DNA of 64,000 nt from Verrucomicrobiota bacterium (GCA_049523455.1 JBEKMW010000009.1:6758-70757); one strand, 5' to 3'. Positions 1 through 62,377 are shown, numbered from the stretch's first letter. Program-made: numbers and translations. Notes: a model not told the origin generated them from the letters alone.

Positions 1-323
1 AAATTAGTGGAAAACTGTACAAACAATACCGCGGCATGGGCAGTTTTGCGGCCATGAAGGCCGGTTCGGCAGCGCGTTACGGCCAGCCGGCCCATGCTAC
101 GCAAAAGGTCGCGGCGGAGGGGATTGAGGCGCTCAAGGAAGCCTGCGGGTCAGTGGACCGGGTGCTGGCCCAGCTCATCGGGAGCATTCAAAGCGGCATG
201 GGTTATCTCGGCGCGGCCAATCTCGCCCAGCTTCAGGAGAAAGCCCGGTACATCCGCGTCAGCCCCGCTGGCCAGCGCGAAGCCGCGCCCCACGACGTCG
301 TCGAATTGAAGACCGGTAACTAG
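1..323 (+). CDS. guaB: IMP dehydrogenase, C-terminal fragment (gene continues upstream of the window)
   Basis: Frame is open from base 3. The translation [17 protein letters not shown]...[19 protein letters not shown]...[16 protein letters not shown] matches the conserved IMPDH C-terminus (YRGMGS, xSGMGYxGA, HDV tail). Confidence 0.9.
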
Positions 324-327
324 TGGA

Positions 328-1040
328 GTGCGGCGACTTGTCGCCGCTTTCCTCGACGCGACGTGTCGCGTCGAAACAAAGCGCGGACACGTCCGCGCAC
401 TCCCAAAAACCTGCGGCTGGCCAGCCGGTTCATGGGGAGCCTCCTTTCGATCTTTCGCATGCACTGGGACCATGAACCCAGTAGGGACTTCTCCCTCTCC
501 CCGCCAAACGGGGAGGGCCGGGGTGAGGGGTCGTTTTCTGTCTTCTGCCTTCATTGGCTATTGGCTATCGGCTATTGGATGTCGAATGTTCCCCCGGTTC
601 ATGGAAAGCCTCCTTTCGCCTTTGCGCATGCACTGGGACCATGAACCTGACGTAAGCTGCCAGTCTGCCGAACCAGGTTCGCGGGCCACCTGCTGTCCCC
701 TCTCCTATTCCCTCGCCCATTCTGATGGGAGAGGGACAGGGTGAGGGTATTAACTCTGATGGGAGGGGAGAGGGTCAGGGTGAGGTGAGGGTTCCGCCTT
801 CATTGGCTATCGGCTATTGGCTATTGGCTATTGGATGTTCGATGTTCCCCCGGTTCATGGAAAGGGCCGGGGTGAGGAGCCTGATTCTATTTGGAACTTT
901 GAGCCTGCCGATGCCACACGACCCTCCGAATATGAATGCTGCCCGCCTGCCATGCCCTCGCCCATTCGGATGGGAGAGAGGGAGGCCGAAGGCGGGTGAG
1001 GGTGTTAATTCAAATCAGCAATCGGCAATCGGAAATGATC
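328..1040. repeat. Mosaic of intergenic repeat families: palindromes, GGTTCATGG...CCATGAACC hairpins, GGGAGAGGG/GGTGAGGG units and heptamer arrays
   Basis: Three back-to-back palindromes at 330-398. Hairpin copies at 427-478 and 596-647. (ATTGGCT)n-type heptamers at 551-580 and 801-836. (AATCGGC)n at 1013-1040. The ORFs predicted here (328..744, 725..1153 and others) only read through repeats. Confidence 0.85.
330..350 (+). terminator. Possible guaB terminator hairpin (also the first unit of a REP-like palindrome triplet)
   Basis: GCGGCGA (330-336), CTTG loop, TCGCCGC (341-347), followed by TTT. It is followed by the palindromes TCGACGCGAC/GTCGCGTCGA (353-374) and GCGCGGAC/GTCCGCGC (381-398). 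Confidence 0.35.
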
Positions 1041-1092
1041 GACATTCTTCCGGCCCGATGGCACTCTGGGCGCCACCGGCACCAATGCCAGT

Positions 1093-1404
1093 GTGCTCGC
1101 CGCCTACTCGGATGCCGACGCGCGCGCCATCTTCGCCGCGCGCGCCAAATTGAATGGCAAATTTGTCCCGCTCAAAATCGCTTTCACGCCGGCCATTCGC
1201 ACCACCTGGCGCCAGCTCATCCGCTGGCGCCTCCGCGAGTGCGGCGGCACAGCCACCCTCGAACAGCTTTACGAACTGGCGGCCGGCCATCCCAAGCTCG
1301 CCGCCAATCCCAACTGGCAGGCCAAGATCCGCCAGCAGGTCCAGCGCGAAGCCGACCGCGTCGGCCCCGCGCTCTGGAAACAACGCTTCCTTTTGCCCGC
1401 ATGA
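1093..1404 (+). CDS. Hypothetical small protein, possibly with a winged-helix-like C-terminus
   Basis: GTG-started 103-aa ORF with strong GC3 bias. Contains ...GGTATLEQLYELAAGHPKLAANPNWQAKIRQQVQ.... No family recognised with certainty. Confidence 0.5.
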   Translation: MLAAYSDADARAIFAARAKLNGKFVPLKIAFTPAIRTTWRQLIRWRLRECGGTATLEQLYELAAGHPKLAANPNWQAKIRQQVQREADRVGPALWKQRFLLPA

Positions 1405-1478
1405 AAATGACCCAAGTGCAATGGATTCTCGCCTGCAGCGCGATGTTGTTAGCAGCAAAATCGTCACAGCTCAAATCC

Positions 1479-1652
1479 TCATGGCTTGGGGTCATCGTGC
1501 AACTTGTGCGCAATCTCCTCTGCCGCGCCAGCTATCCGCTCCGATGCTTTGACCAACCGGCTCAAAAGAATGACCAAAAAAACCGCCAAAGCAATCATGC
1601 CGACATAAATGAGAAGCACGAATAAAACCCAAATAAATCCTGACATCATCAT
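1479..1652 (-). CDS. Small (57 aa) single-pass membrane protein, hypothetical
   Basis: Hand-translated, below the ORF-track size cutoff: MMMSGFIWVLFVLLIYVGMIALAVFLVILLSRLVKASERIAGAAEEIAHKLHDDPKP. One clear TM helix. Confidence 0.35.
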   Translation of the reverse strand: MMMSGFIWVLFVLLIYVGMIALAVFLVILLSRLVKASERIAGAAEEIAHKLHDDPKP

Positions 1653-1694
1653 ATCTTGCCTTTTGTGTTGTGGTTAACTTTGCGTGTGTCTTGT

Positions 1695-1776
1695 TGCCTA
1701 ACGTTCCAATATAGGTAATCCGAAGTTATTCACCGGCGGGGCGGTGGGCCGAAGGAAATCCCCCGCCGCGCCGACG
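1695..1776. repeat. About 82-bp repeat, copy A (an inverted copy lies at 16918-17000)
   Basis: TGCCTAACGTTCCAATATAGGTAATCCGAAGTTATTCACCGGCGGGGCGGTGGGCCGAAGGAAATCCCCCGCCGCGCCGACGAG is, with a few mismatches, the reverse complement of 16918-17000. Contains a GGCGGGG...CCCCGCC stem. Confidence 0.85.
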
Positions 1777-1840
1777 AGAAGGGGTCGGTCAATAGTAATA
1801 TAGTATTTTAGTATTGACGATCGGGAATTAATTTTGCAGG

Positions 1841-2785
1841 ATGACAACCATGGCGCGGAAGCTGCGAGTGGAGTATGGCGGGGCGATTTATCATGTGATC
1901 AACCGCGGGGACCGGCGCGAACCCATCTTCAAGGATGACGAGGACCGGCGCCGTTTTCTGGCGACCCTGGGCGAAGCCTGTGCCAAAACCGACTGGCAGG
2001 TTCATGCGTTCTGCTTGATGCCCAACCATTTTCATTTAGTGGTCGAGACGCCCCAAGCGAACCTGGCGGCGGGGATGAAATGGTTTCTGGGGACCTACAC
2101 CAGCCGATTCAACCGGCGGCACAAACTGTTTGGCCATTTGTTCAGTGGTCGTTACAAGGCATTGATTGTGGATGGCAGTGGCAGCGGTTATCTGAAGACC
2201 GTCTGTGATTATGTGCATTTGAACCCGGTGCGAGCCCGGTTGCTCAAGGCGGAACAATCGCTGGGGGAGTATCGCTGGAGCAGTTGGCCCGAATACCTAA
2301 ACCGTCCGGGGCGGCGGCCGGCATGGTTGCGCGTGGACCGGTTGCTGGGTGAATATCGCGTGCCACGGGACAGTGCGGCGGGTCGGCGGCATCTGGCCGA
2401 GGCGTTGGAACAGCGCCGTGGGGCGGAAGCTGGCGACGCGTTCAAAGCGATCCGGCGAGGCTGGTTTTTCGGCAGCCCGGAGTTGAAGCAGGAATTGCTG
2501 GCGGCAATGTCGGAGCGGACGGGCCGATGGCATTATGGGGAGGCGGTGCAGGAGTCGTCGGTGGCCAGGGCGGAGCGTATGGTCCGGCAAGAAATGGGCC
2601 GGCGGAAATGGGATGAAGCGACCTTGGCTGCGCGGCGCAAAGGCGATGCCCAGAAGGTGGCCATGGCGCGGCGATTGCGGCGCGAGACGACGGTGACAGT
2701 GGCTTGGATAGCGGAACGGCTACGGATGGGAACCCCGACCTACCTGGCGCATTTGCTGTACTGGAACCGACGCAATGAAAAATAG
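1841..2785 (+). CDS. REP-associated tyrosine transposase (RAYT, IS200/Y1-like) with a C-terminal DnaA-type HTH tail
   Basis: N-terminal YHVINRG...HAFCLMPNHFHLVVETP (HuH motif) ...GHLFSGRYKA (catalytic Tyr region) ...YVHLNPVRA. C-terminus RRLRRETTVTVAWIAERLRMGT. Confidence 0.85.
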   Translation: MTTMARKLRVEYGGAIYHVINRGDRREPIFKDDEDRRRFLATLGEACAKTDWQVHAFCLMPNHFHLVVETPQANLAAGMKWFLGTYTSRFNRRHKLFGHLFSGRYKALIVDGSGSGYLKTVCDYVHLNPVRARLLKAEQSLGEYRWSSWPEYLNRPGRRPAWLRVDRLLGEYRVPRDSAAGRRHLAEALEQRRGAEAGDAFKAIRRGWFFGSPELKQELLAAMSERTGRWHYGEAVQESSVARAERMVRQEMGRRKWDEATLAARRKGDAQKVAMARRLRRETTVTVAWIAERLRMGTPTYLAHLLYWNRRNEK

Positions 2786-11033: not shown

Positions 11034-11254
11034 GACACTTTGATTTCGTAAGGCGTCTACCGCACGATCATGCCGATGCTATGCCTGCCCCGCTCCTCCC
11101 GCAACTGCTTTTTGCAGAAGGACGATTCCATTTCAGCCATCCGCGGTTCAAATGACGGGCCTTTGCTCATTTTCGAGCCGTCCCAAAGCCGTCCCAAAGC
11201 CGTCCCAAGCCGTACCAGACGCGCTGCCTGGATTTATCCCTCTCATGAACCGGG

Positions 11255-11289
<35 letters not shown>

Positions 11290-11462
11290 CAATGAAAGAG
11301 CAGGATTCCGGTCGTCCCCAGGAACTCCCGTCAGGTTCAGGGGTTCAATGCGCGATGTTATCGGGGAAATCTCTCCCCGCCCAACGGGGAGAGGTTCTTT
11401 CCGAATTGAGTGCAAAGTCGAAATTTCTTTCCGTCGCCGCGCCTTTGCGGGAAATTCCTCGC

Positions 11463-12251
11463 GTGGAACGGCTGGGTAAAAACCATGGAGGCTATCGCGG
11501 CGAGACCATTGACATCCGCGCCGTGCTGCGCGACATCACAGACGCCGCGCAAACGCACGGCTGGACGGCGGAAATTTTCCACTGCACCAGAGAATTCGAC
11601 CTGGCCGCGCTCCATCGCCACCCGACGACGGGCCATCCGCCGCCGCCGGCCCGCATTTATATTTCAACCGGCATCCACGGTGATGAACCGGCCGGCCCCC
11701 TTGCCGCCTTGCGGTTGCTGCACGACAACCGCTGGCCCGACAACGCGGAATTGTGGCTCTGTCCCTGCCTGAACCCCGCCGGCTTCACCCGGAACACCCG
11801 CGAAAATGCCGAAGGCATTGACCTCAACCGCGGCTATCGCAACCCCGTGACGCCGGAAATTCTGGCGCACATTGCCTGGTTGCAACGGCAGCCGGCCTTC
11901 GACCTCTACCTCCTGCTCCACGAGGACTGGGAGACGCACGGCTTTTATCTCTACGAACAGAATCCCGACGGCCGTCCGTCATTGGCGGAAAAAATGATTG
12001 AGGGCATTGAAAAGGTCTGTCCCATTGAGCAGTCCGAAATGATTGAAGGGCGTGAAGCCAAAGGCGGCATCATCCGCCCGAACCTCGACCCCCGCGCGCG
12101 CCCGCAATGGGCTGAGGCGTTTTATCTGATCATGCGCAAGTCCCGCCTGGGTTACACCCTGGAAGCTCCGTCTGATTTCCCTCTGTCCGTCCGCGTGAAT
12201 GCCCTCGTCACCGCCGTCCACGCCGCCTTGAAAAACTTTCGCTCCCTTTGA
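11463..12251 (+). CDS. M14-family zinc carboxypeptidase / MpaA-AstE-like amidase
   Basis: STGIHGDEPAG, CLNPAGF, GIDLNRGY, LLHEDWE. Start uncertain: the ORF is open from 11070, but 11070-11460 is repeat DNA, so GTG 11463 was chosen. Confidence 0.75.
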   Translation: MERLGKNHGGYRGETIDIRAVLRDITDAAQTHGWTAEIFHCTREFDLAALHRHPTTGHPPPPARIYISTGIHGDEPAGPLAALRLLHDNRWPDNAELWLCPCLNPAGFTRNTRENAEGIDLNRGYRNPVTPEILAHIAWLQRQPAFDLYLLLHEDWETHGFYLYEQNPDGRPSLAEKMIEGIEKVCPIEQSEMIEGREAKGGIIRPNLDPRARPQWAEAFYLIMRKSRLGYTLEAPSDFPLSVRVNALVTAVHAALKNFRSL

Positions 12252-16465: not shown

Positions 16466-16819
16466 ATGTCCGACAACAAACAACAAGCAGAAGTTCCAGT
16501 TGCGTTGCTTTCGAAAGCCTTGGTCGATTTGCGCGAGGCTCGCAGCAGCCAGCGCGCGACTCGTGAGGCTGTGATTTGGTATTTCAAATTCGGCATCACT
16601 GGCGGTTTCACAGTTGGTTCACTGATGCACTGGTTGTTCCTTTGGCCAGATTCGAAGCAGTCGGTGTTTTCACAGGTTGGCTACTCAGCCAAGGAGATCA
16701 GCGAGTTTATGGAGATTCTCAAAGAGAAACATTCTGCCCAAGAGTTAGGTTTGCAAGACGACCAAATGCCGCCTAACACGCTGGAACCGACGGCCACTGC
16801 CCCTTCCGCCGTCGCTTAG
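16466..16819 (+). CDS. Hypothetical protein with one TM segment
   Basis: 117 aa. The last 12 or so codons (LEPTATAPSAVA) are encoded by the composite repeat, so the C-terminus is repeat-derived. Confidence 0.4.
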   Translation: MSDNKQQAEVPVALLSKALVDLREARSSQRATREAVIWYFKFGITGGFTVGSLMHWLFLWPDSKQSVFSQVGYSAKEISEFMEILKEKHSAQELGLQDDQMPPNTLEPTATAPSAVA

Positions 16820-17000
16820 AAGCTATGGCGGGACTAGTGAGATTTGGGTTGAGCGATGAAAATTGGATGTCATAATTGCATTCGGAGCGTGGTCGCCGGT
16901 GGCCGCGGCTCAGCTCATCGTCGGCGCGGCGGGGGATTTCCTTCGGCCCACCGCCCCGCCGGTGAACAACTTCGGATAACCTATATTGGAACGTTGGGCA
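16783..17000. repeat. Composite repeat, copy 2 (16783-16910 relates to 13587-13750; 16918-17000 is the inverse of 1695-1776)
   Basis: Direct comparison of the three loci. See the finding on this repeat. Confidence 0.85.
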
Positions 17001-17046
17001 CCACCGGCTGCCGAGAATTGACATCCAGACAATCAGAACGATTGTC

Positions 17047-18341: not shown

Positions 18342-21299
18342 TTACCCCGTGCAGGTGCACACCGGATTACGGTCGCCATAGACGTTGTCCACGCGGCCCA
18401 CGATGGGCCAGAATTTGTATTCGCGCAGGCCCGGTACCGGATACGCCGCCTGCTCGCGCGGGTACGGCCGGTCCCAATGGTCCGCCGTCACCACGTCCGC
18501 CGTGTGCGGCGCGTTTTTTAGCACGTTGTTCTGCCCATCCGCCGCGCCGGATTCAACCGCCGTCATCTCGGCGTGGATGGCGATCATCGCGTCGCAAAAA
18601 CGGTCCAATTCGCATTTTGCTTCGCTCTCGGTCGGCTCCACCATCAGCGTGCCCGCCACCGGAAACGACAACGTGGGCGCGTGAAATCCGTAATCCATCA
18701 GCCGCTTGGCCACGTCCTCGGCGGTGACCCGCTTGAACCCGCGCAATTCCAAAATGCACTCATGCGCCACCAGCCCGCCGGGCCCGCGATAGAGCGTGGG
18801 AAAATATTTCTCCAACTGCTTGGCGATATAATTCGCGTTCAAGATCGCGAAGCGTGTGGCCTCCGTCAGTCCCTCCGCTCCCATGGCGGCGATGTACGCC
18901 CAGGAAATCGGCAGGATGCCTGCGCTGCCCCAAGGCGCGCCGGCAACCGCGCCGATGTGTTGCTTCGAATGCTTAGGGCCCAACCGCCCTGTGAACACCG
19001 GATGGCTCGGCAGGAACTCGACCAAGTGTTTCGCCACGCCAATCGGCCCCACGCCCGGCCCGCCGCCGCCATGCGGGATGCAAAACGTCTTGTGCAGGTT
19101 CAAATGGCATACGTCCGCGCCGATGCGCCCCGGTGAGGTCAAGCCCGCTTGCGCGTTCAAGTTCGCGCCATCCATATAGACCTGTCCGCCGTGCGCGTGG
19201 ATGATTTCGCAAATCTCCCGGATCGTTTCCTCAAAAACTCCGTGCGTGGATGGATACGTGACCATCAAGCACGCCAATTCGTCTTTGTGCGCCTCGGCTT
19301 TGCTCCGCAAATCCGCCACGTCAATATTGCCATCGCTATCGCACGCCACGACAACGACTCTTAACCCGGCCATTGCGGCGCTGGCGGGATTGGTGCCGTG
19401 GGCGGACGTCGGAATCAGGCACACCTTCCGCTGCGCCTGGCCGCGCGACTCGTGATAGGCGCGAATAACCAGCAGGCCGGTGTATTCACCCTGCGAACCG
19501 GCATTGGGCTGCAAGCAAATCCCGGCGAACCCGGTGATTTCCGCCAGCCAGTCCTCCAAGTTCTGAAACAGGATTTGGTACCCGCGCGCCTGTCGTAACG
19601 GTGCAAACGGGTGAATGCCGGCAAATTCCGGCCACGATATCGGCAGCATTTCAAACGCCGCATTGAGCTTCATCGTGCACGAGCCCAGCGGTATCATCGA
19701 AGCCGTAAGCGACAAATCGCGCGATTCCAGTCGCTTGAGATACCGCATCATCTCGGTCTCGCTGTGGTAGCGGTTGAAAACTTTGTGAGTGAGGATTGCC
19801 GATTGCCGGTCGCCGACTGCCGATTGCCGATTGCCAGCCAGTTCGGCCACGGAAAATTTAACGGGTTTATTGCCATTGAAGATTTGCCAGATTTCGGCCA
19901 CGTCTTTGGCGCCGGTCGTTTCGTCCAACGAAATACCGATGGTGTGGCCGTCAACCACACGGAAATTGACGTGGCGTGCCTCGGCAAGTTTCACAATTTC
20001 CGCCGCGCGCTTGTTGCCAAGCGAAACAACGAGCGTGTCAAAGTAGGACAGGCGTCCCGCCTGTCCCGCTCCTTTTGCGCTTGCCTTTAAAGATGGAGAC
20101 AGGCGCGACCCGTCCTTCGTGGCAGGGCTACTGCGGAGGGCGGACGCCTGTCCTACGGTGAAGCCAAGTTTCCCCAAACCCGCGGCGAGCGTGGCCGTCA
20201 ATCCGTGGATGCGTTCCGCAATTTTCTTCAGCCCTTCCGGCCCGTGATAGACGGCGTACATCGCGGCCATGCTCGCCAGCAACGCTTGCGCCGTGCAGAT
20301 GTTGCTCGTCGCCCTCTCACGGCGGATGTGCTGCTCGCGCGTGCCGAGCGCCAACCGCAGCGCCGGCTGGCCGCGTGAATCCCGCGACACGCCTACCAGA
20401 CGGCCCGGCATCTGCCGCTTGAATTCGTCGCGCGTGGCGAAGAACGCCGCGTGCGGCCCGCCGTACCCCAGCGGCACCCCAAACCGTTGCGCGCTGCCCA
20501 CCGCCACGTCGGCGCCGAATTCACCCGGCGGTTGGATGAGCGTGAGCGCCAGCAAATCCGTGGCCACCGTCACCATCGCTCCGGCCGCATGCGCCTTCTC
20601 CACCAGCGACCCGTAATCCTCAATCGCTCCAAACGTGTCCGGATACTGCACCAGCACGCCAAAAACTTTTTCGCTGAACGGGAAATCTTCGGGAGACCCG
20701 GTCACCACTTCGATTCCCAATGCCCTTGCCCGCGTGCGGACGACCTCGATGTTTTGCGGATGGCAGGTTTCGGAAACCAGGAACACGTTGCGTTCCTCTC
20801 CGCCTTTGAGCCGATGGCACATCATCATGGCTTCCGCGCAAGCCGTGGCTTCGTCGAGCAAAGAGGCATTGGCCACCTCCAGCGCCGTGAGATCGCACAC
20901 CATCGTCTGGAAATTCAAGAACGCCTCGAGCCGCCCTTGCGAAATCTCGGCCTGATACGGTGTGTATTGCGTGTACCAGCCCGGATTTTCCAGCAGGTTG
21001 CGCTGGATGACCGCCGGCGTGATGCAATTGTAGTAGCCCATGCCGATGAACGAGCGGCAGACCCGGTTCTGCGAAGCGATCTCTTTTAGCGCCGCGAGCA
21101 CCTCATGTTCGCTGCGTGCCGGCGGCAGATTCAATTTCTTGTCGAGCCGGATTTTCCGCGGCACGGCGGCGTCCACCAGTGCGTCGAGGCTCGGAAAGCC
21201 GAGCAACGCGAGCATTTCCTTCGCCTCCCGGGCATTCGGTCCCACGTGGCGTCGTACAAATTCGTCTGGGTGTGCAGTTGGATTTTGGGTCACAGCCAT
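18342..21299 (-). CDS. gcvP: Glycine dehydrogenase (aminomethyl-transferring), fused P-protein
   Basis: 985 aa. [42 protein letters not shown] (PLP-Lys), [16 protein letters not shown]. Confidence 0.97.
19794..19835. repeat. Six tandem GATTGCC-type heptamers (42 bp) inside gcvP
   Basis: gattgcc gattgcc ggtcgcc gactgcc gattgcc gattgcc. Encodes [14 protein letters not shown] on the minus strand. Confidence 0.9.
20043..20156. repeat. 114-bp REPIN-like element with perfect 15-bp terminal inverted repeats, in frame within gcvP
   Basis: GTAGGACAGGCGTCC (20043-20057) and GGACGCCTGTCCTAC (20142-20156). 38 codons. Confidence 0.9.
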
Positions 21300-21454
21300 C
21301 TGCCGAAATTATAGTTCCACGCCCGAAAAAGCGAGATTAGAATTGCCATCTGGCACATGAACTCCCCCATGAACCGGGGAGCATCGAACACTGCAGACCA
21401 CAGACCACAGACGGTCGGAAACGCTAAAACGCTAAAACGCTGAACCGAGGCGGG

Positions 21455-21582: not shown

Positions 21583-22029
21583 GGCGCCTGATTCGTTAGC
21601 ACCCTGCCTGCCTGCGGTTCTGATGACCTAAAGGTCGTTTGGCGGCATTGTGGATTGTCCAGCGATTTCGAATGGAAGAATTGACGCCCCCTCTCCTCTC
21701 CCCCCTCTCCTATCGGGAATACACCTGCCGAAATCAGGGCAATAAAGGGCAATAGAGGGCGCTAAAGGCCACCACAGGACGCTCTCCATGAATTTGGGAA
21801 CATCGAACATCGAACGTCGAACATCGAATGAAAAGGAGCCCTCACCCCGGCCCTCTGCGCCCCATCCTCTCCAGGCGCTGCCTCCAAGGTTGCGCTCGCG
21901 GCTGGTTTTGGTTTATTCTCGCCCGAATGAAATGGCGCCTGACCAGCCGCAGGAATTACTTTCTCAAACATTCCCCTCGCGGCAGGCAAGCGGCGTCGCC
22001 TTGACCAGCTTGATTCGTCCAATTGAATT

Positions 22030-24656: not shown

Positions 24657-24862
24657 TGGAACTCCTCCGGTGGAAGGTTAATCGGTCGCTGAACTATGGT
24701 CCTGGGTCCCATGACCTGTCCCTAATAAAGCGCAAATGGCAACGACGCGCCAGTAAAATTTTGTAAAATTTTCAACGGCGGTGGTCATTGCGTTTGTCCT
24801 CGGATTGCCTTTCCGGCTTTCCAAGACGGTGGGGATGGCCTAATTTGTGTCATCCTCGTGCC

Positions 24863-26365
24863 ATGCCGAGTGTTTACCTCAAGACTTTTGGTTGCCAGAT
24901 GAACGAGCGCGACAGCGAAGCCGTCGCCGCGCAGCTCGTGGCCAGAGGCTACACGCTCGCGCCGTCCGAAGCGGTGGCCGACGTGATTTTGCTCAACACG
25001 TGCAGCGTGCGCGACCTCGCGGAGCAGAAGGCGCTCGGCAAAATGACGGCGCTCATCGGCGATACCCGCCGCACGCGACCCAAGGTGGTGCTCGGCTTCC
25101 TGGGTTGCATGGCCCAAAGCCGCGGACAGGAACTCATTGACCGGTTGCCGGACGTGGATTTGGTCCTCGGCACGCAAAAGTTTCATCGCGCAGCGGATTA
25201 CCTGGACGAAATCCTGTCCGGCCGGCGTGAAAAAATTGTGGACGTGGCGGAAGAGGACGGCAGTGAAGCCACGATCCGCGAGCACTTGCTTTATGGCAAT
25301 GCCGCGGCCAATGGCAATGGTCATAGGCCGCCGCCGGTGACGGCGTTTGTCAGCATCATGCAGGGCTGCAACCAGTATTGCACTTTTTGCATCGTGCCTT
25401 ACACGCGCGGCAGGGAGCGCAGCCGCACCATTCCCGACCTCGTGGCCGAATGCCGCCAACTGGTCGCCCAGGGCGCGAAGGAGATCACGCTGCTTGGCCA
25501 GATTGTGACCAGTTATGGCAAACGCGGAGGTGTGGCGGCGGGCATCCTGCCTGCCTTAGAGCCGGGCTTCCAGCCCGGCGGGATGACCGTGGATAAGTCC
25601 GACGGTTCAACCATTTCAGAGAACGGTCCGGGCGGCAGGATGCCGCCCTCTACGGCAGGCAGGATGCCTGCCGCCACGAGCCCTTTTGTCCACCTGCTTG
25701 AAGCCGTCCACGAGATCGAAGGATTGGAACGGATCCGCTTCACCTCGCCGCACCCGAAAGGTTACGGCGACGATTTGATTGACGCTTACGCGCGGCTGCC
25801 GAAATTGGTCGAAAGCGCGCACCTGCCCGTTCAAAGCGGCAGCAATCGCGTGTTGAAATTGATGCACCGCGGCTATACGCGCGAACGTTACCTCGGAATC
25901 ATCGAGAAATTGCGGCGCGCCCGCCCCGGCATGGGCATCAGCACCGACCTGATTGTGGGCTTTCCCGGCGAGACCGAAGATGACTTTGAACAAACCCTTT
26001 CCCTGGCGCGCGAAGTGGAATTTGACCAGGCATTCATTTTCAAATACTCGCAACGCCGCGACACGCCCGCGGCCCAAATGCCGGACCAGGTTCCGCAACG
26101 CCTCCGGGAGGCGCGCAATCAGCGATTGTTGGAAGTCATCAACGAAATCGCGGGGCGCAGACATGCCGCGTTCGTGGGCCGGCAAACGCAAATTCTGGTG
26201 GAAGGCCCGAGCAAAAAGAACCCGGCGCGGATGACCGGCCGGACGCGCTGCAACAAGATAGTGGTCTTTGACGGCTCGGACCGCCATCGCGGCCAGCTCC
26301 TGGACGTGCGAATCATCCGCGCCGGTTCCTTTACGCTTTACGGCGAGCCGGATGTTCTGGAATGA
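24863..26365 (+). CDS. miaB: tRNA-2-methylthio-N6-dimethylallyladenosine synthase
   Basis: YLKTFGCQMNERDSE, radical-SAM CNQYCTFCIVPYTRG, LPVQSGSNRVLKLMHR, TRAM tail. The ORF is open from 24788 but ATG 24863 fits. Confidence 0.95.
   Translation: MPSVYLKTFGCQMNERDSEAVAAQLVARGYTLAPSEAVADVILLNTCSVRDLAEQKALGKMTALIGDTRRTRPKVVLGFLGCMAQSRGQELIDRLPDVDLVLGTQKFHRAADYLDEILSGRREKIVDVAEEDGSEATIREHLLYGNAAANGNGHRPPPVTAFVSIMQGCNQYCTFCIVPYTRGRERSRTIPDLVAECRQLVAQGAKEITLLGQIVTSYGKRGGVAAGILPALEPGFQPGGMTVDKSDGSTISENGPGGRMPPSTAGRMPAATSPFVHLLEAVHEIEGLERIRFTSPHPKGYGDDLIDAYARLPKLVESAHLPVQSGSNRVLKLMHRGYTRERYLGIIEKLRRARPGMGISTDLIVGFPGETEDDFEQTLSLAREVEFDQAFIFKYSQRRDTPAAQMPDQVPQRLREARNQRLLEVINEIAGRRHAAFVGRQTQILVEGPSKKNPARMTGRTRCNKIVVFDGSDRHRGQLLDVRIIRAGSFTLYGEPDVLE
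25534..25675. repeat. About 142-bp multi-hairpin repeat element inside miaB
   Basis: GGCGGCGGGCATCCTGCCTGCC (25534-25555) matches the reverse complement of GGCAGGCAGGATGCCTGCCGCC (25654-25675) at 21 of 22 positions. Internal hairpins GCCGGGCttccaGCCCGGC and GGCGGCAggaTGCCGCC. Confidence 0.85.
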
Positions 26366-42808: not shown

Positions 42809-43945
42809 ATGAGTGATCCATCTTTCACACAACTATTTCGCCGAAGCCGGTATTCCCGGATTGGCCCGTCAGGAGACGATGAGCGGGATCAGGACCGCAA
42901 GGAAGTATTCGCCGTGGCAGCGGTAGGGTTTGCCTTAAAGCATGATGCCCAATTCCAAAAGAAATTCCTTGAAAAATTTGCCGGTATTGATGAAGATCCC
43001 GAAGATTACAAGCCAAGCCTCCAGCCGGCCGATTGCATAGACTTAAGGCTGGAAAACCCCCAAAAAAAGATTTTAGTCGCGGTTGAATTCAAAGTTGGCG
43101 CAGGACTGGCGGAACATCAAAATCCTTGGCTCGATTTCGACGAACGAAAGGCCAATCTCAGAAAACCCGATGACAAAGGTTTGCCGTTCTGGTGCAAAGC
43201 CAAAAATGGTTATGGCTTTCAATTCAGCAACGATTTTAAGGATTTTCCCACCGTCCATTATGTGATCGTTCAACAAAAAGAGCACGGAGATGTGCGTGAT
43301 GAGGAGCCAATCGAGCAACCTGGTAAAACTTTTCATTTGAAAAGGCGGAATTGGGAATGCCTTTTGCCACCGAATGCGGGGTTGGAGAGAGATTTAGTTA
43401 ATTCGTTGGGCGAACTTGGAATTACTGAACTCGTGGACTGGACTATGAAAACCATGAAAATAGACCCCGAATCCATTGAAGGTTGCTTCAAAGGATTGGA
43501 AGTAGGAGAAAAGCTCATCAAAATCCTCCTCTGGATTTCTAAGAAATTGAGGCTAACAGTCAAATTAGACGACTTTGTGACGGAAATATCGGGAGATTCG
43601 CGTTATTTAGGCATTGGTTTCTCAAATAAGGTTACGGCACGTCTATCGAAAGAACGATCTGCATATATCGGTAAGCGTGATTATGGCGCTGGATGGTTCG
43701 GCTATTCTTCGGAACAACAAGGAAAATTCCAACCCGAAGTGTGGTTTTATTGTAATGATAATATGAAGCCGAGGCTATTAAATATACTGAAAACTGAATT
43801 CAGTGATTCTGTAGAATTTCCTGAACCCCCGAAGGATGGGTGTGAAAACTACAATATTCGAATTCGCCGTTCGCAGACTTCGCGAAAGCCGGATGGGGCC
43901 TGGTTTTATGAAGTCTTAGGAATCAATGAATTTTCAAATGACTGA
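42809..43945 (+). CDS. Uncharacterised low-GC protein with a putative PD-(D/E)xK nuclease core
   Basis: 378 aa. ...[31 protein letters not shown]... fits D-x(n)-E-x-K on consecutive beta strands. Hand counts: line 43741-43800 has 17/60 G+C and line 43201-43260 has 22/60. Confidence 0.7.
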
Positions 43946-46427
43946 ACCCAAAGTTACACCGGAACTGGTTGCCAAACACAACCTGACGCCCGAGGAACAC
44001 CGGAAAATTCTCGAAGTGCTGGGCCGCGAGCCGAGCTATACCGAATTGGGCATCTTCTCGGTGATGTGGAGCGAACATTGCTGTTACAAGAGCACCCGCC
44101 CGCTGCTCAAAACCTTTCCGACCAAGTCCAAGAAAATCCTCGTCGGCGCCGGGGAAGAGAACGCCGGCATTATTGACATTGGCGACGGCCTGGCCATTGC
44201 GTTCAAAGTGGAGTCGCACAACCATCCGAGCGCGGTCGAGCCGTTCCAGGGGGCGGCCACGGGCGTCGGCGGCATCGTGCGGGATATTTTTACGATGGGA
44301 GCCAGGCCCATTTGCTCGGTAAATTCCTTGCGATTTGGACCGATCACCGGGAATTCGGAACGCGGAGCGCGGAGTGCGGAATCAAAAAGTGGGAAGGAAG
44401 CTGCGTTGAAGAACAACCGCCGCCTCTTTGCGGGCGTCGTCGCTGGCATTGCGCATTATGGTAATTGCTTTGGCATTCCCACCATCGCCGGCGAGGTTTA
44501 TTTCGACCCATCCTACGAGGGCAATCCGCTGGTCAACGCTTTTTGCCTGGGCGTCCTCCGCCACGAGCAAATCGCGCGCGGCGCCGCCAAAGGCATCGGC
44601 AATCCGGTCTTTTACGTGGGCCCGGCCACGGGCCGCGACGGTCTGGCCGGCGCCGCATTCGCCTCGCAGGATTTGACCGAGGAATCGGCCGAGCAGCAGC
44701 GCGGGGCGGTGCAGGTGGGCGATCCCTTCATGGAAAAACTCGTGTGCGAAGCCTGCCTGGAATTGCTGGCCACCGGCGCGGTGGCGGGCATTCAGGACAT
44801 GGGCGCGGCGGGCCTGACCTGTTCCACGTGCGAGACGGCGGCGCGCGCCGGCACGGGCATCGAAATCGAATTGGACAAGGTGCCGCAACGCGCGCCGAAC
44901 ATGAGCAGCTACGAAATCATGCTCAGCGAATCGCAGGAGCGGATGCTCATCATCGTTAACCGCGGCCGGGAAGCGGAGGTCAAACGCATTTTCGACAAAT
45001 GGGATTTGCCTTGGGCGGAAATCGGTTTCGTCACCGACACCGGCCGCATGGTGGTCAAACACCACGGCCAGGTGGTGGCGGATATTCCGGCCAGGAAAAT
45101 CGCCGATGAGTCGCCGGTTTGCCAGCGGGAGGCGGCCGAGCCGGAGTACCTGAAGGACGTGCGGGCCTTTCGGCTGGATGGAATTGCCGATTGCCAATCA
45201 CCGGTTGACGATTTGAAGAAGTTGCTGGCGTGGCCGACCATCGCGTCGAAAAACTGGGTGTACCGCCAATACGACCACATGGTGCGGGATGGTTCGGTGG
45301 TTTGTCCCGGCAGCGACGCGGCCGTGTTGCGCATCAAGGCGGACAGTTTGCCGGATCTGGGGAGCGCGCCCGCCCCGGGCGCCGCGGTTGACGCCCCGTC
45401 AACCGCAAAAGCCGGCGACATGTCAGCCGCCAGCGACGCACTTTCAGTTCCCGAGAAATTTATCGCCCTGACCTCGGATGGCAACGGCGCTTACGTCTAT
45501 CTCGATCCCTACGAAGGGGCGAAGGTCGTCATGGCTGAAGCGTGCCGCAACCTGGCGTGCTCCGGCGCCGTGCCATTGGGGACGACGGACAATCTCAACA
45601 TGCCCAGCCCCCTCAAGCCGGAACTGTTCTGGCAAATCAAGGAATCGGTGCGCGGCTTGGCCGACGCGTGCCGGGCCTTCAACGCGCCCGTCACCGGCGG
45701 CAATTGCTCGCTCTACAACCAGAGCCCCAACGGCCCGATTGACCCGACGCCCACCGTCGTGGTGGTGGGGTTGGTCGAAAAACCGGAACACGTGACGACG
45801 CAGTGGTTCAAGGACGAAGGCGACGCGATCATTTTGCTGGGTGAAGCGGTGGATGCGAGCGATCCGCTGTCCGGCCTGGGCGGTTCCGCTTATCTGCAAG
45901 TGATCCATGGCCAAAAGACCGGCAGACCGCCGCGTTGTGATCTCGAGCAGGCCAAAACCCTGCACACGACGCTGCTGGGCTTGATCCATTCCGGACTGGT
46001 AAAAAGCGCGCATGATTGCAGTGAAGGCGGTTTGGCGGTTTGCCTGGCCGAAAGCTGCATTTCACAACTCGCCGCCCGCGAAACGCCCCGCCTCATCGGG
46101 GCCACGGTGGATTTGAGCCTCGTAGGACAGGCTTCCAGCCTGTCTCAAACGAAAAAAGAAGATGGAGACAGGCAGGATGCCCGTCCTCCGGCGCGCTTGG
46201 ATGGCCTGCTCTTTGGCGAAGCCCAGTCGCGCGTGGTTATCACCTGTCACCCGCTGAATGCGGTGAAAGTGGTCGAACGCGCGAAGTTGATGGGTGTGCC
46301 TGCGGCACAAATCGGCAAAGTGGGCGGTGACCAGTTGACCATAAAAACCGCCGCCGGCGAAATCAGCGCGCCAGTGGCCGAATTGCACGACGTCTGGTGG
46401 AACGCCATCGCGCGGGCGATGGCCTGA
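43926..46427 (+). CDS. purL: Phosphoribosylformylglycinamidine synthase subunit PurL
   Basis: 833 aa. [52 protein letters not shown]. The start may be ATG 43938. Confidence 0.96.
44356..44383. repeat. Four CGGANNG heptamers inside purL
   Basis: cggaacg cggagcg cggagtg cggaatc, within a segment of about 19 aa ([19 protein letters not shown]) that is absent from B. subtilis PurL as I recall it. Confidence 0.8.
45339..45455. repeat. 117-bp (39-codon) insertion in purL carrying one arm of the 12269-12412 element
   Basis: GGGGAGCGCGCCCGCCCCGGGCG (45359-45381) against GGGGAGCACGCCCGCCCCGGGCG (12269-12291). Confidence 0.8.
46122..46190. repeat. In-frame copy, inside purL, of the same element family as gcvP 20043-20156
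   Basis: GTAGGACAGGCTTCCAGCCTGTCT...AAGATGGAGACAGGCAGGATGCCCGTCCTCCG against GTAGGACAGGCGTCCCGCCTGTCC...AAGATGGAGACAGGCGCGACCCGTCCTTCG. Confidence 0.85.
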
Positions 46428-57649: not shown

Positions 57650-59017
57650 ATGCGACAGATTCTCGCCATAGCTGGATTGACTTGGAAGGCCGCCTTCCGA
57701 TTCCGGCTGTTCCTCGTCATGGCGGTGCTCTTGCTCGCGTCCGTGGTTGGCCTGCCATTGATCATCAAGGACGATGGCACGGCGCGCGGTTTCACGCAGA
57801 TCCTGTTGACCTACACCCTGAGCATCATCACGATGCTGCTCGGGCTTTCGACGCTGTGGCTGGCGTGCGGAACGCTGGCCCGGGACATCGAGGAATGCCA
57901 GATCCAGGTGGTGGCCACCAAGCCCGTCGCCCGCTGGCAGATCTGGCTGGGGAAATGGCTGGGCCTGGTGTCGCTCAACGCGGCGTTGCTGGCTTTGTCG
58001 GGGGCCTGCGTCTATGGGCTCTTATACTGGCGTTCCGCAAGGCTCCCGGTGGCCCAACAGAAGATTTTGCGCCAGGAAGTGCTGGTGGCGCGCGGTTCGG
58101 CCAAGCCATCCAACTTAAACGCGGAGATTGAAGCCCAAACCGACCAGGCTTTGAGGCGTGTGCTCACGAACACACCCGTGGCTCCGGCGGAAATCCCGGC
58201 GGTGCGCACGCAAATTCGCGAGCAGGTCAAAATGCAGTATGAACTGGTGCCGCCGGATTATGCGCACCGGTGGCAGATTGATCTCGGTTTGGCGAAAAAT
58301 TATTTGCGCGACCAGCCGCTCCAATTGCGCGTGAGATTCAACACCGCCGCGTGGGACGTAAACAGCACCTACCTGGCGTATTGGCGAGTGGGCGCGACGA
58401 ATTCGCCCAATGTCTGGGAACCGCCCGTGCCGATGAGTCTCTCCGCAAACACGTTCCATGAATTTCAAATCTCCCCAAATCTTTTCGACGCCCATGGCGT
58501 GTTAACGGTCATTTTTATCAATCCCAACAATACGGCGCTTACCTTTCCGCTCGATGAGGGAATTGAAGTGCTGTATCCGCAGGGCGGTTTTGCGCCGAAC
58601 TTTGCGCGCGGCCTGGGAATCATATGGTGTTGGATGGCGCTGCTCGCCGCGCTGGGATTGACGGCGGCAAGTTTTCTTTCGTTTCCGGTGGCGGCGTTCT
58701 TCTCGCTGGCCGTCCTGCTGGTCGTCCTGTCTGGCGGCGTGCTCGCCGAGGCAGCGGATGCCGGCACAATCGGCAACGGAGCCCCCGGGCCTGTTGACGT
58801 CGTGGTGATTCCGATCTTCAAGGCCCTGCTGGTGCCCATCCATCTAATCGGGGAGTTTTCGCCCATTGACGCGTTGAGTACGGGGCGCAGCATCCCGTGG
58901 AGTGAGTTGGGGGCGGCGTTCGGCCAGATCGTACTGCTCTTTGGCGGTGTGACGGCCATCATCGGCATCGCGCTGTTGCATCGGCGCGAACTGGCCACGG
59001 CCCAAGGCAGCCAATGA
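57650..59017 (+). CDS. ABC-2-type permease-like membrane protein with a large extracytoplasmic loop
   Basis: MRQILAIAGLTWKAAFRFRLFLVMAVLLL...ECQIQVVATKPVARWQIWLGKWLG. The ORF is open from 57131, but ATG 57650 follows the ATPase stop. Confidence 0.8.
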   Translation: MRQILAIAGLTWKAAFRFRLFLVMAVLLLASVVGLPLIIKDDGTARGFTQILLTYTLSIITMLLGLSTLWLACGTLARDIEECQIQVVATKPVARWQIWLGKWLGLVSLNAALLALSGACVYGLLYWRSARLPVAQQKILRQEVLVARGSAKPSNLNAEIEAQTDQALRRVLTNTPVAPAEIPAVRTQIREQVKMQYELVPPDYAHRWQIDLGLAKNYLRDQPLQLRVRFNTAAWDVNSTYLAYWRVGATNSPNVWEPPVPMSLSANTFHEFQISPNLFDAHGVLTVIFINPNNTALTFPLDEGIEVLYPQGGFAPNFARGLGIIWCWMALLAALGLTAASFLSFPVAAFFSLAVLLVVLSGGVLAEAADAGTIGNGAPGPVDVVVIPIFKALLVPIHLIGEFSPIDALSTGRSIPWSELGAAFGQIVLLFGGVTAIIGIALLHRRELATAQGSQ

Positions 59018-60558
59018 ACAGCCGCGCCAGAAGAATCCTCCTGCTCCTGCTGGCCGCCGCCTTGCTCGCCGGTGCGGGCCGCGTGCAGCAGTCTTTAAAC
59101 CGCGACCGGGACACGCTGGGCCTCACGCAGACCGCCACCCTCCAGAATGCCCCTCCCTTGCTGGCGTTCACCACCGTCGCGCTGGGCGGCTTTCGCGGCT
59201 TGATTTCCAATTACCTTTGGATTCGCTCGAATGACCTCCAATTGGACGATAAGTATTTCGAAGCCGCGCAACTGGCAGACTGGATTACGGACCTCGAGCC
59301 GCGCTTCGCGACCGTCTGGGTTTTTGAAGCCTGGAACATGGCCTTCAACATTTCGGTGAAGTTCAAGGATTTCTCCGACCGCTGGAACTGGCTGCAACGC
59401 GGCATCGAGCTGCTGCGCGACCGCGCCTTGCTATATAACCCGGACTCCGTCCCCATTTATCAGCAACTCGCCTGGTTCTATCAGTTCAAGATGGGCGGCT
59501 ACCTCGATGACGCGCAGGTCTATTACAAGGGGAAATGGGCGCTGGAAATGATGCCCTTCTTCGGTCCCAAAGGGACCAATTTCACCGCCCTGGTCAACCC
59601 GCAAACCGCGCAGGAAAAGGCCAACGCCGCCGGGTTCAAGGAGAAATACAAGATTGACCCGGTCTTCGCCGAAAAGGTGAATTCCCAATGGGGCCCGCTC
59701 GACTGGCGGTTGCCGGAGGCGCATGCGATTTACTGGGCCTCGGTCGGCCTGCAAAAGGCGAAGGAAGATCCTGACAAGGTCAAACCGGGCGACCTCATTC
59801 AACTGCGCCGCGTGATCTACCAATCCATGCTTCAGGCATTCCATCACGGGCGCTTTATTGCCAACCCCTTTACCAATCAGTACACGTTGGGGCCGAACCT
59901 GGACCTGGTGGCCAAGGTCAACAACGCCTATTTGACCGAGATGAAGGAAGACCCGCCCAGCAGCAATGAAATCGCCGTGGCCCACCGCAACTTCCTGCGT
60001 GATGCGGTCTATTTCCTTTACTCCAACAACCGCGTGGCCGAAGCGGCCAATTGGTATCGTGACCTTGGCCAGCGCTATCCCGATAAAACCATCCTTGACA
60101 AGGTTCCGGATTCTCTTCCGAAAAACCTCACCTTGGATCAGTATGCGGCTGACCGCGTGCAGGAAGACATTGGTGATTTTTCAGAGGAACGCACCATCTC
60201 GGATATCCAAGGATTGCTGGGCACCGCCTATTACAACCTGGCGATTGGAGAAGATGACCATTACCAGGGGCTTTTGTTAGAGGCCCACCAGCTTTATGAG
60301 AACTATCAAAAAAGATTGCAAGCCTTCGACACGACCAAGCGCATCGTTCTTCCTCCTTTTCCAACCATGAACCAAACCGTGCGGAATAGTATTCTTGATC
60401 CGAAGAACGGTGCGCCCTATGCCATGCGCGCCGTCATCCGCACCCAGTTGGGGCTGCAGCCGGAGTCCAGCAACCCTCCTGCTGCTTCCACTAACGCCCC
60501 GCCGGAGTCCGGGACCAACACCGTGGAGAACCCCGCCACCAATTCAACGCCGCCGTAA
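59014..60558 (+). CDS. Conserved-looking hypothetical protein, N-terminal signal anchor (514 aa)
   Basis: ATGA-coupled to the permease gene. Helical repeat-like body. No motif recognised. Confidence 0.75.
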   Translation: MNSRARRILLLLLAAALLAGAGRVQQSLNRDRDTLGLTQTATLQNAPPLLAFTTVALGGFRGLISNYLWIRSNDLQLDDKYFEAAQLADWITDLEPRFATVWVFEAWNMAFNISVKFKDFSDRWNWLQRGIELLRDRALLYNPDSVPIYQQLAWFYQFKMGGYLDDAQVYYKGKWALEMMPFFGPKGTNFTALVNPQTAQEKANAAGFKEKYKIDPVFAEKVNSQWGPLDWRLPEAHAIYWASVGLQKAKEDPDKVKPGDLIQLRRVIYQSMLQAFHHGRFIANPFTNQYTLGPNLDLVAKVNNAYLTEMKEDPPSSNEIAVAHRNFLRDAVYFLYSNNRVAEAANWYRDLGQRYPDKTILDKVPDSLPKNLTLDQYAADRVQEDIGDFSEERTISDIQGLLGTAYYNLAIGEDDHYQGLLLEAHQLYENYQKRLQAFDTTKRIVLPPFPTMNQTVRNSILDPKNGAPYAMRAVIRTQLGLQPESSNPPAASTNAPPESGTNTVENPATNSTPP

Positions 60559-60565
60559 CCCTGCA

Positions 60566-60590
60566 GTAGGACAGGCGTCGCGCCTGTCTC
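60566..60590. repeat. Intergenic half-copy of the GTAGGACAGGC...GCCTGTC element family
   Basis: GTAGGACAGGCGTCGCGCCTGTCTC forms the hairpin GACAGGCG/CGCCTGTC. Confidence 0.8.
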
Positions 60591-60622: not shown

Positions 60623-62377
60623 GTGACGAAGACGAATTCCAACGACGGCCCGACGCGGGACGTTCGACCGCGCAGCGAGCGTCCCCTCCGCGTCGGCTTG
60701 ATTTCGCTCGGCTGCGCCAAGAATCTGGTGGATGCCGAGGTCATGCTCGGTTCGCTCCTCCAGCACGGCATGGAAATCACCAATGATGCCGCGCAGGCCG
60801 ACGCGGTGATCGTCAACACTTGTTCATTCATTGACGCCGCACAGGAAGAAAGTGTGGACGCCATTCTCGAATCCGTCGCGCTGCGCGAGGCCAACCGTCG
60901 TGGCCAGGCCGTCATCGTGTCGGGTTGCCTGCCGCAGCGCTTTCGCGGGGAGCTGCCGCAGCTCCTGCCGGAGGTGGACGCTTTCATGGGCATTGATCAA
61001 GTCACGCGCGTCGGCCAAATCGTGGAGGATGCGCTCCAGAACCGGCGCAACCGGATGGGGAAACAGCCCACATCGCAGAGTGAATTCCGGCCCGCGAAAG
61101 CAAAAATCACCGGACGGATTGCGGTATTGGAGAAGAATCGTGCCGCCGAAGAGCGTGTTCGCCCCGCTGAGACCGGATTTCCCCATTTAACGCAACCCGC
61201 AACCCGCAACACCTCAGCCGCATCCGTGCCAATCCTCGAGGTCACCCCTCGTCCCGCCTTCGTTCCCGATTTTGCCACGCCGCGTTTTCGTCTTACCCCG
61301 CGTCATTTTGCCTACGTCAAAATCGCCGAGGGCTGCAACCATCCGTGCAGCTTTTGCATCATTCCCCGGATGCGCGGTCCGCACCGCAGCCGCCGGCAGG
61401 CGGACATCGTGGCCGAAGTGCGCGCACTCCTTGCCGATGGGGTCAGGGAAATCAACCTCATCTCGCAGGATTCCACCTACTATGGCCTTGATTTGCGCCG
61501 GCCCGCAGCAGGCATCAGTAGCCCGCAAGAAGCATCACACCCTTCGCGCGCGATTTCGTCGCCGGAAAAGTTCTCCGCCACGGTAGAATCCCTGCCGGCC
61601 AATGCCGCCACGCTTTGCACCCTGCTGCGCGACTTGAACTCCCTGCCCGGCGATTTCTGGATTCGACTCCTTTACACCCATCCGGCGCATTGGACGGATG
61701 AACTCATCCAGACTATTGCGGGCTGTTCCAAGGTGGCGCGTTATGTGGACATCCCCCTCCAGCACATCCATGAGAACATGCTCGAACGCATGCGGCGCGA
61801 GACTTCCCAGCAATACCTCGTGGACCTGCTCCGCAGAATCCGCGCCGGGGTGCCGGGCATCGCCTTGCGAACGACGTTCATCGTGGGCTTTCCCGGCGAA
61901 ACCGAACAGAGTTTTGCCACGCTGCTCGATTTTATCCGCGAAACCAAATTCGAACGCCTGGGGGTGTTCGCCTATTCCCGCGAAGCGGGCACGCGCGCAG
62001 GTGCCATGGCCGGCCAGATTTCCGAACGGGTGAAGCAAAAGCGCCGCGAACTCGCCATGGCCGAGCAGCGCCGGATCGCCCGGAAAGTGTCGGAATCGTT
62101 TGTGGGCCGTGACATCAAAGTTTTGGTTGAAGGCCCGGCCGACGCGAAACAAGGGACGCCAGCCAACGTCAGCTCCTGGGAGCACGGCTGGCTCCGCAGG
62201 CCGGCTGCCCGCGCCCCGCGTACCACGGCGGGCCGCTGCTTCATTGCCCGCGGCGAAGCGGACGCCCCGGATATTGACGGACGGGTCTTCGTTCGCGGCC
62301 GGTTGCCCGTGGGCGAATTTGCCCGCGTCAAAATCGTGGGCCACACGGACTACGATTTGCTGGCCGAGCCGGTTTGA
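60623..62377 (+). CDS. rimO: Ribosomal protein S12 methylthiotransferase
   Basis: ISLGCAKNLVDAE, VNTCSFI, LTPRHFAYVKIAEGCNHPCSFCIIPRMRG, IPLQH, FIVGFPGETE, TRAM tail ADAPDIDG. 584 aa compared with about 440 typical. Confidence 0.92.
   Translation: MTKTNSNDGPTRDVRPRSERPLRVGLISLGCAKNLVDAEVMLGSLLQHGMEITNDAAQADAVIVNTCSFIDAAQEESVDAILESVALREANRRGQAVIVSGCLPQRFRGELPQLLPEVDAFMGIDQVTRVGQIVEDALQNRRNRMGKQPTSQSEFRPAKAKITGRIAVLEKNRAAEERVRPAETGFPHLTQPATRNTSAASVPILEVTPRPAFVPDFATPRFRLTPRHFAYVKIAEGCNHPCSFCIIPRMRGPHRSRRQADIVAEVRALLADGVREINLISQDSTYYGLDLRRPAAGISSPQEASHPSRAISSPEKFSATVESLPANAATLCTLLRDLNSLPGDFWIRLLYTHPAHWTDELIQTIAGCSKVARYVDIPLQHIHENMLERMRRETSQQYLVDLLRRIRAGVPGIALRTTFIVGFPGETEQSFATLLDFIRETKFERLGVFAYSREAGTRAGAMAGQISERVKQKRRELAMAEQRRIARKVSESFVGRDIKVLVEGPADAKQGTPANVSSWEHGWLRRPAARAPRTTAGRCFIARGEADAPDIDGRVFVRGRLPVGEFARVKIVGHTDYDLLAEPV

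Follow-up and report, generated by a model that had tools for sequence, protein, structure and literature searches.

The window analysed here is a stretch of 64,000 nucleotides from a Verrucomicrobiota bacterium (GCA_049523455.1, JBEKMW010000009.1:6758-70757; one strand, 5' to 3', positions counted from its first nucleotide). It contains purL, the gene for the PurL subunit of formylglycinamidine ribonucleotide (FGAM) synthase, which carries an in-frame insert at positions 46122-46190. This insert is a head-to-head dimer of a repetitive extragenic palindrome (REP) tagged with the tetranucleotide GTAG; it is REPIN-like (REP doublet forming a hairpin) and decayed. We consider it likely that a dimer of the type associated with REP-associated tyrosine transposases (RAYTs) was inserted into a tolerant loop of the protein and was kept by filtering for reading frame. 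A sequence-only reading of this DNA had noted a repeat common to purL and gcvP but did not recognise it as belonging to the RAYT-associated GTAG REP dimers.

The insert, read directly from the window as GTAGGACAGGCTTCCAGCCTGTCTCAAACGAAAAAAGAAGATGGAGACAGGCAGGATGCCCGTCCTCCG, consists of two inverted units, a spacer and a final extra base that fills out the last codon (Table 1). It is stop-free and encodes PurL residues 733-755, in agreement with the earlier claim that the frame is kept open. The left unit fits the family pattern and base-pairs with the right unit in the minimum-free-energy structure, a single long hairpin in which 46124-46146 are paired with 46165-46187. The energy of this hairpin is -18.1 kcal/mol (z -5.7) for the + strand and -21.0 kcal/mol (z -7.1) for the - strand as DNA, and -35.3 kcal/mol (z -6.4) as RNA. 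The inverted-repeat arms (46121-46146 and 46165-46190) are 85% complementary. The tag of the right unit is GGAG on its own strand (CTCC on the + strand); an unmutated version of this unit, GCCTGTCCTAC, occurs at locus L121, and intact GTAG ends of the family are present there, in the gcvP copy and in the single unit at 60566. The subfamily motif AAGATGGAGACAGGC extends from the spacer into the right unit, and the spacer aligns with verrucomicrobial dimers (L102, L038, L043, L058 and L014). A short palindromic stem-loop (20-40 bp), an unpaired GTAG or GTGG tag at one of its ends, a dispersed high-copy family and frequent head-to-head pairing (1-100 bp apart) are features of the GTAG-tagged REP superfamily, and the folding of two inverted REPs and the short spacer between them into one long hairpin is that of a REPIN.

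Table 1. Positions and properties of the purL element, its host gene and related copies in the window
Feature	Position	Strand	Details
purL (FGAM synthase subunit PurL), host gene	43926..46427	+	833-aa open reading frame (ORF); NCBIfam NF002290 equivalog, 937 bits
Complete in-frame insert in purL	46122..46190	+	68-nt REP dimer + 1 nt; 23 codons
Left REP unit	46122..46144	+	23 nt; GTAG, G, 8-bp stem GACAGGCT/AGCCTGTC, loop TCC (3 nt)
A-rich spacer	46145..46166	+	22 nt; last 8 nt open subfamily motif AAGATGGAGACAGGC
Right REP unit, inverted, decayed	46167..46189	-	One stem mismatch; terminal CTAC to CTCC
gcvP ORF	18342..21299	-	TIGR00461
Sister copy in gcvP	20043..20156	+ (gene read on -)	114 nt, 38 codons; ends GTAGGACAGGCGTCC...GGACGCCTGTCCTAC
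Single unit of the same family, usual extragenic position	60566..60588	+	8 nt past the stop of ORF 59014..60558

Direct repeats indicating target-site duplication were looked for on the flanks of the purL and gcvP copies and none are present; with a slash at each boundary, the junctions read ...GAGCCTC/GTAGG...CTCC/GGCGCG in purL and GTCAAA/GTAGG...CCTAC/GGTGAA in gcvP. A miniature inverted-repeat transposable element derived from a DDE-type insertion sequence was rejected as a candidate because both copies are without flanking direct repeats. Rfam covariance models gave no match at the gathering threshold anywhere in the window.

Members of the family are present at three loci within the window. 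Allowing up to one mismatch, GTAGGACAGGC occurs four times against an expectation of 0.42, and none of 100 shuffles reached four. Exact copies of AAGATGGAGACAGGC number two, in purL and gcvP only; with up to two mismatches 0.09 would be expected, and none of 100 shuffles reached two. Both copies align along their full length with dimers from other Verrucomicrobia, and the spacer ends TCTCT(A/G)AC...AGATGGAGA are common to them. The proposal that blocks of a single repeat family are found in purL and gcvP is thereby upheld, their similarity at the DNA level being far above the shuffled background. The opposite coding sense of the two copies is also real, because the asymmetric 15-mer AAGATGGAGACAGGC lies on the + strand in both, with the genes on opposite strands. 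Translation of the element in both orientations is less striking than had been suggested: because the ends are palindromic, the 5' end reads GTA GGA CAG (VGQ) in both genes and the 3' frames alone differ, the gcvP reading ending in GQAGRLSY. An internal decayed unit is also held by the gcvP copy. Our search for GcvP orthologues returned mostly fragments, enough to identify empty and single-unit alleles and too few for an analysis of turnover; most orthologues are insert-free (LGYxVGx-xxFFDTL) and a few close ones bear one unit (e.g. P0166).

The history of the purL insertion was examined in a sample of 120 PurL proteins (78-100% identity, Verrucomicrobiota/Limisphaerales) and 80 orthologous loci as DNA. 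The site is uninterrupted in about 30 more distant loci, where it reads GAT TTG AGC GCC ATC AAA GAC GTC CGC (DLSA-IKDV-RLD). Between fixed anchors there are 123 nt in the window allele and 63 nt in the empty site, so that the gain is 60 nt or 20 codons, fewer than the approximately 28 extra residues estimated previously; the three IKD codons have been swapped for the element and one base. At locus L154, where this portion of PurL shows 68% identity, a copy lies in the same orientation; its left unit has decayed, but it retains the A-rich spacer of the window and the GCCCG variant (56 of 82 nt identical across the insert, 62-72% in the flanks). Because L154 holds this decayed copy in the same orientation, the window insertion is old and decaying rather than recent. 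The left units of the window and L121 are identical at 24 of 24 positions, with flanks at 75-77%. The window ORF also matches PurL of T. thermophilus (PDB 3viu; E 9.5e-168), and between alignable blocks there are 48 residues in the window protein and 14 in that of T. thermophilus.

To place the element in a wider context, we scanned one genome per species (596 Gb) with the 18-base pattern GTAGGACAGGCNNNNNGCCTGTC, for which about 17 chance matches were estimated. At least 120 stretches were recovered (L001-L120), holding 163 units, many of them in +/- pairs 8-110 nt apart; 59 distinct head-to-head dimers were among the matches listed. Hosts among these matches include Verrucomicrobiota, Acidobacteriota, Planctomycetota, Nitrospirota and others, a Caldilinea metagenome-assembled genome, and cyanobacteria including the isolate Cylindrospermum NIES-4074. 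The 23-nt unit GTAG-GACAGGC-N-TCY-N-GCCTGTC is common to genomes of at least seven phyla; most of its variation falls in the closing base pair and loop (GTCTC, ATCTT, GTCCC, GTCGC, TTCCA and ATCCT). One contig labelled Bifidobacteriaceae (L043) has a dimer of verrucomicrobial type and has probably been mis-binned.

Two of these loci link the family to RAYTs. In Cylindrospermum sp. NIES-4074 (L008), units flank an ORF of 176 aa that has a match to Pfam Y1_Tnp and scores 94.5 bits with the NCBIfam RAYT model NF047646, above its cut-off of 80. In a verrucomicrobial contig (L045), a RAYT homologue lies between such dimers, scoring 64.7 bits (E 8e-18) and thus below the cut-off of 80. The two RAYTs are 37% identical.

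The RAYT gene of L008 itself carries an in-frame unit, GAACAGGCGAGACGCCTGTTCTAC (L008:3934-3957), read as NRRDACST, and this unit-coded segment is missing in the verrucomicrobial homologue. In L045 (Verrucomicrobia bacterium Bin_73_16, VFJO01000280), a RAYT with REP dimers, about 800 nt in all (L045:1465-2262), lies inside the gene for valine-tRNA ligase (ValRS), and the frame 97..2340, spanning ValRS and RAYT, is stop-free throughout. Many of the 120 homologues of this RAYT listed are annotated as single proteins with housekeeping enzymes, the joints being REP-coded peptides. Partners include ValRS, Ddl, Sua5, CobT and NAD synthase, in which the RAYT lies between the two domains; D-Tyr-tRNA deacylase accounts for at least 11 clusters and S-adenosylmethionine (AdoMet) decarboxylase for at least 13. 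Examples are P0241, P0242, P0262, P0267, P0324 and P0349. These proteins may be true fusions or may result from read-through by gene callers across stop-free REPs. Long proteins of this kind were discarded as 'gene fusions or annotation errors' in an earlier survey of Y1 transposases (PMC6006769).

An open frame within such an element may arise through selection on the repeat for compatibility with coding or through filtering of the insertions that survive, and the sequence-only reading had left a choice between the two. Our data favour filtering. The lengths of the 59 dimers fall into the three classes modulo 3 as 18, 20 and 21, without bias towards multiples of three, and open frames total 156 as compared to 151 +/- 8 in shuffles. 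On each strand one frame is shut by the TAG within GTAG, in 57/59 dimers on one strand and 53/59 on the other, and the remaining four frames are open in 33-39 of the 59, as compared to about 25 in shuffles; this excess openness arises because stops are concentrated in the GTAG frame. Only 20 of the 59 dimers (34%) fall within ORFs 200 codons or more in length, as opposed to 70% of segments drawn at random from these loci. Coding has thus not shaped the family as a whole, and its members are under-represented in genes; the intragenic copies are those that survived. One-third is still a large share for intragenic copies, whose hosts include GlnRS, BioA and ValRS. Selection for a coding-compatible repeat was rejected as the main cause, given the absence of a bias to multiples of three and of a global excess of open frames.

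A further observation concerns the boundaries of the intragenic copies. At the insertion sites in BioA (L115), GcvP and PurL, residues encoded by the REP ends match native residues: the GRTG of the element stands in for the conserved GFGRTG motif of BioA, the element provides VG and the aromatic residue ahead of FDTL in GcvP, and its V occupies the place of a native I, L or V in PurL. This coincidence could be due to microhomology at integration or to survival of only those insertions that keep these residues. The match prompted consideration of GTAG as an insertion target, by analogy to TTAC of IS608; this candidate was rejected, GTAG being ascribed a guide role instead (PMC8266576). No obvious common motif was apparent when the 15 nt 5' of the 163 units were inspected by eye.

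The purL loop is filled in 117 of the 120 close orthologues and most of these inserts are recognisable palindromic elements; empty alleles within the clade are restricted to P0052, P0059 and P0089. The occupants are unrelated in sequence, orientation and length (about 13-45 residues) and comprise at least seven sequence families: GTAGGACAGGC, GTAGCGGCATCTCGG, GTGGGGCGAGCG, GTAGGGACGAC, TGGGAGGG, CCCCTCAC...GGGTGAGGGG and TGTGCTGCCGGCATCC, plus a heptamer-armed element (in L136, an inverted element with TTCAAGT x3 ... ACTTGAA x3). No orthologue shows a single conserved homologous loop: the distant ones are empty and the close ones have varied inserts. The family of the window is found in both orientations with identical junctions (window and L121). 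Families beginning GTAG or GTGG have a common left junction, DLSx/GTAG, and have lost the same IKD codons. In the CCCCTCAC...GGGTGAGGGG and TGGGAGGG families the junctions differ and relics of native codons survive (AAC GTT and CAG GTC), so that at least several separate insertion events took place. The chance that two orthologues contain the same family is 0.83 above 98% identity in conserved columns, 0.38 at 95-98% and 0.25 for random pairs. A small number of tolerated loops and a high flux of insertions could account for this pattern. We infer that the loop tolerates extra residues, because its length varies widely among orthologues and there is an unaligned gap relative to 3viu; the insert is presumably translated, as the open frame is conserved in many independent assemblies.

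Two further hypervariable loops are present in PurL (window positions 44343-44415 and 45349-45465; residues about 140-163 and 475-513) and behave alike, with the GACAGGC family found there in some orthologues together with many element-coded peptides. In the window protein, the loop at 475-513 holds another palindromic unit, TGGGGAGCGCGCCCGCCCCGGGCG (45358-45384), relatives of which are paired in a dimer lying downstream of ORF 11070..12251, at 12268-12413.

The explanation that we consider likely would run as follows. A RAYT, an HUH/Y1 enzyme that acts on single-stranded hairpins, would have copied the dimer into purL, the point of entry being a short loop in the C-terminal domain of PurL. 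The insertion would have survived only because its length and small changes at the junctions preserved the reading frame and because the frame used was stop-free. The segment would now be translated as about 20 added hydrophilic residues and be decaying. The observed parts of this account are the structure of the element, the family to which it belongs, the uninterrupted site in orthologues, its decay, the association with RAYTs elsewhere and the absence of a family-wide coding bias.

Several findings sit less easily with this explanation. No RAYT was detected by phmmer among ORFs of at least 70 aa in the window. Rare neutral insertions alone predict a lower share of filled loops than was found. 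Stops in the spacers are modestly rarer than in shuffles (120 versus 145 +/- 10). An AlphaFold2 model of PurL built with 30 close orthologues, a shallow alignment, had a mean pLDDT (predicted local distance difference test) of 34.8, too low to be usable; the loop is presumed to be exposed from its variation in length. Finally, as the complement of the right-hand GTAG is mutated, the purL copy may no longer be a substrate.

A serious alternative, albeit one to which we attach a rather low probability, is that the purL copy, like most occupants of the loop, replaced a resident palindromic element instead of transposing into an empty site. Replacement could have proceeded through insertion beside a resident REP with subsequent loss of the latter, gene conversion from copies elsewhere in the genome or template switching at a hairpin. 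This alternative is serious because the junction is shared and empty alleles are rare: the GTAG and GTGG families have the same junction and all lack the same IKD codons, even though deletion of target sequence is not expected of transposition by the RAYT enzyme family. Identical junctions for the two orientations of one family point in the same direction, as do pairs of PurL proteins that are 95-97% identical in conserved columns and differ in family. On the other hand, the deviant junctions and native relics of the CCCCTCAC...GGGTGAGGGG and TGGGAGGG families indicate that some elements were inserted separately into a native loop, no intermediate allele with a pair of elements side by side was observed at the purL site, the neighbour-joining tree of the orthologues is weakly resolved and conserved columns underestimate elapsed time.

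Selection to keep the loop filled, either for a useful protein loop (contact with PurQ/PurS or solubility) or for a hairpin in mRNA or DNA, is improbable in our view, and the same applies to the hairpin roles that might be proposed (translational pausing, mRNA stability or gyrase binding). The presence of an insert at exactly one place in nearly all close orthologues, the strength of the RNA hairpin and the better conservation of units than of flanks between the window and L121 would fit such selection. A common function would, however, need to be independent of sequence, given that the occupants have no sequence, length or orientation in common. The family present is near random below about 98% identity in conserved columns, empty alleles exist both within the clade and in the more distant orthologues, and the copies of the window and L154 are visibly decaying. 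Chance resemblance between GC-rich, low-complexity coding loops of purL and gcvP, conceivable in a genome of about 60% G+C with common short palindromes, has a negligible probability and is refuted by the shuffles, by recurrence of the unit at least 163 times in 120 loci of the public genome collection and by the full-length alignments with dimers of other Verrucomicrobia, empty-site orthologues being known for both genes.

Returning to insertion of a RAYT-type dimer with filtering for frame, close counterparts have been described. Intragenic GTAG REPs were reported by Di Nocera, De Gregorio & Rocco (2013, BMC Genomics 14:522; PMC3733652), who found them to be most numerous in Opitutus terrae and who defined the GTAG superfamily by GTAG plus a short stem-loop with perfect pairing, dimers arranged head to head and copies that flank RAYT genes. 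In O. terrae, dimers encode 20-30 residues, sometimes twice per gene, and two GTAG-17 dimers are located in the FGAM synthase Oter_3711 (PMC3733652). The O. terrae elements resemble those described here in the GTAG tag, perfect stem-loop, in-frame dimers (20-100 bp apart) in housekeeping genes and RAYT-flanking repeats; the phylum and the enzyme function hit are the same and several elements per gene are possible. They differ in stem sequence, in taxonomic order (Limisphaerales-like here) and in the form of the enzyme (small PurL here, a 1438-aa large form in O. terrae). REPs at the same site are reported in that paper for Xanthomonas recB only, and not as many families at one codon position, and the supplementary files searched contain no peptide or DNA strings of the GACAGGC family. 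Our literature search found no paper on the GACAGGC REP family or on such elements in Limisphaerales.

Rickettsia palindromic elements (RPEs), the classical analogue, were reportedly introduced by Ogata and colleagues in 2000 and are mentioned in PMC3733652; they are similar in that palindromic repeats lie in frame in many genes and are translated in tolerant places of host proteins that are functional. RPE-1 is about 100-150 bp long and is restricted to Rickettsia, and we know of no dedicated transposase for it. The likeness to the window family appears to be in behaviour only, and the two differ in taxon. RPE-4 and RPE-6 have been classed as CGTC-type and not GTAG REPs (PMC3733652). REPINs and their RAYTs and the bacterial interspersed mosaic elements (BIMEs) of Escherichia coli (Bertels & Rainey 2011, as cited in PMC3733652; Ton-Hoang 2012, PMC3333891; Corneloup 2021, PMC8266576) share with the window family an inverted REP pair that forms one long hairpin, a guide-like GTAG 5' of the stem and an HUH/Y1 enzyme for single-stranded hairpins. 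GTAG acts as the guide for cleavage at CT/CA (PMC8266576), and the group-3 REP of S. maltophilia, which has been studied biochemically, has the same layout, with a 23-nt unit, a perfect stem of 8 bp and a loop of 3 nt (PMC8266576). Unlike the window family, with about one-third of the sampled dimers in long ORFs and a unit sequence common to several phyla, REPINs and BIMEs are almost wholly extragenic and have been described mainly in Proteobacteria.

Other repeats are also present in the window. The miaB gene (ORF 24788..26365) contains an in-frame dimer of another family, 146 nt in length (25532-25677; GTGGCGGCGGGCATCCTGCCTGCC...GGCAGGCAGGATGCCTGCCGCCAC), that splits the match to the MiaB profile, with profile position 212 falling at residue 297. 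RimO (60623..62377) has 584 aa as compared to a profile of 432 positions and so probably also contains inserts. Tandem heptanucleotide repeats (CATCGAA, ATTGGCT, ATTGCCG and variants) occur in intergenic DNA and within gcvP, at 553-608, 809-864, 11244-11299, 19795-19839, 21368-21409, 21787-21828 and 45183-45213. An inverted repeat of 86 nt (1692-1777 and 16918-17003; 15 kb apart, 95% complementary) and direct repeats (13579-13745 and 16775-16914; about 90% identical, 3.2 kb apart) together bracket a region in which one gene has a run of seven or eight tandem repeats, each about 147 nt long (14376-15403; motif DGSLWAMG).

The single purL copy is by itself an ordinary relic, and intragenic GTAG REPs are already known in Verrucomicrobia; the less ordinary finding is that elements turn over quickly at a single codon position. 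For annotation, the inserts in purL, gcvP, miaB and probably rimO lengthen proteins and fragment profile matches, and such inserts can make gene callers fuse neighbouring genes. For studies of evolution, these loci are a clean natural record of insertion-tolerant protein loops with filled and empty alleles side by side. We tentatively raise the possibility, which we hold to be doubtful, that the three PurL loops, and probably loops in many housekeeping proteins, are landing pads that exchange palindromic elements in frame. If so, resident REPs would attract or template their successors, amounting to REP-for-REP replacement within coding sequence and to fast variation of protein loops driven by mobile elements, and the in-frame RAYT genes in ValRS, NAD synthase and other enzymes would represent the same process carrying the transposase. 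In-place replacement, if it occurs, would be a little-studied route by which selfish DNA keeps rewriting protein surfaces.

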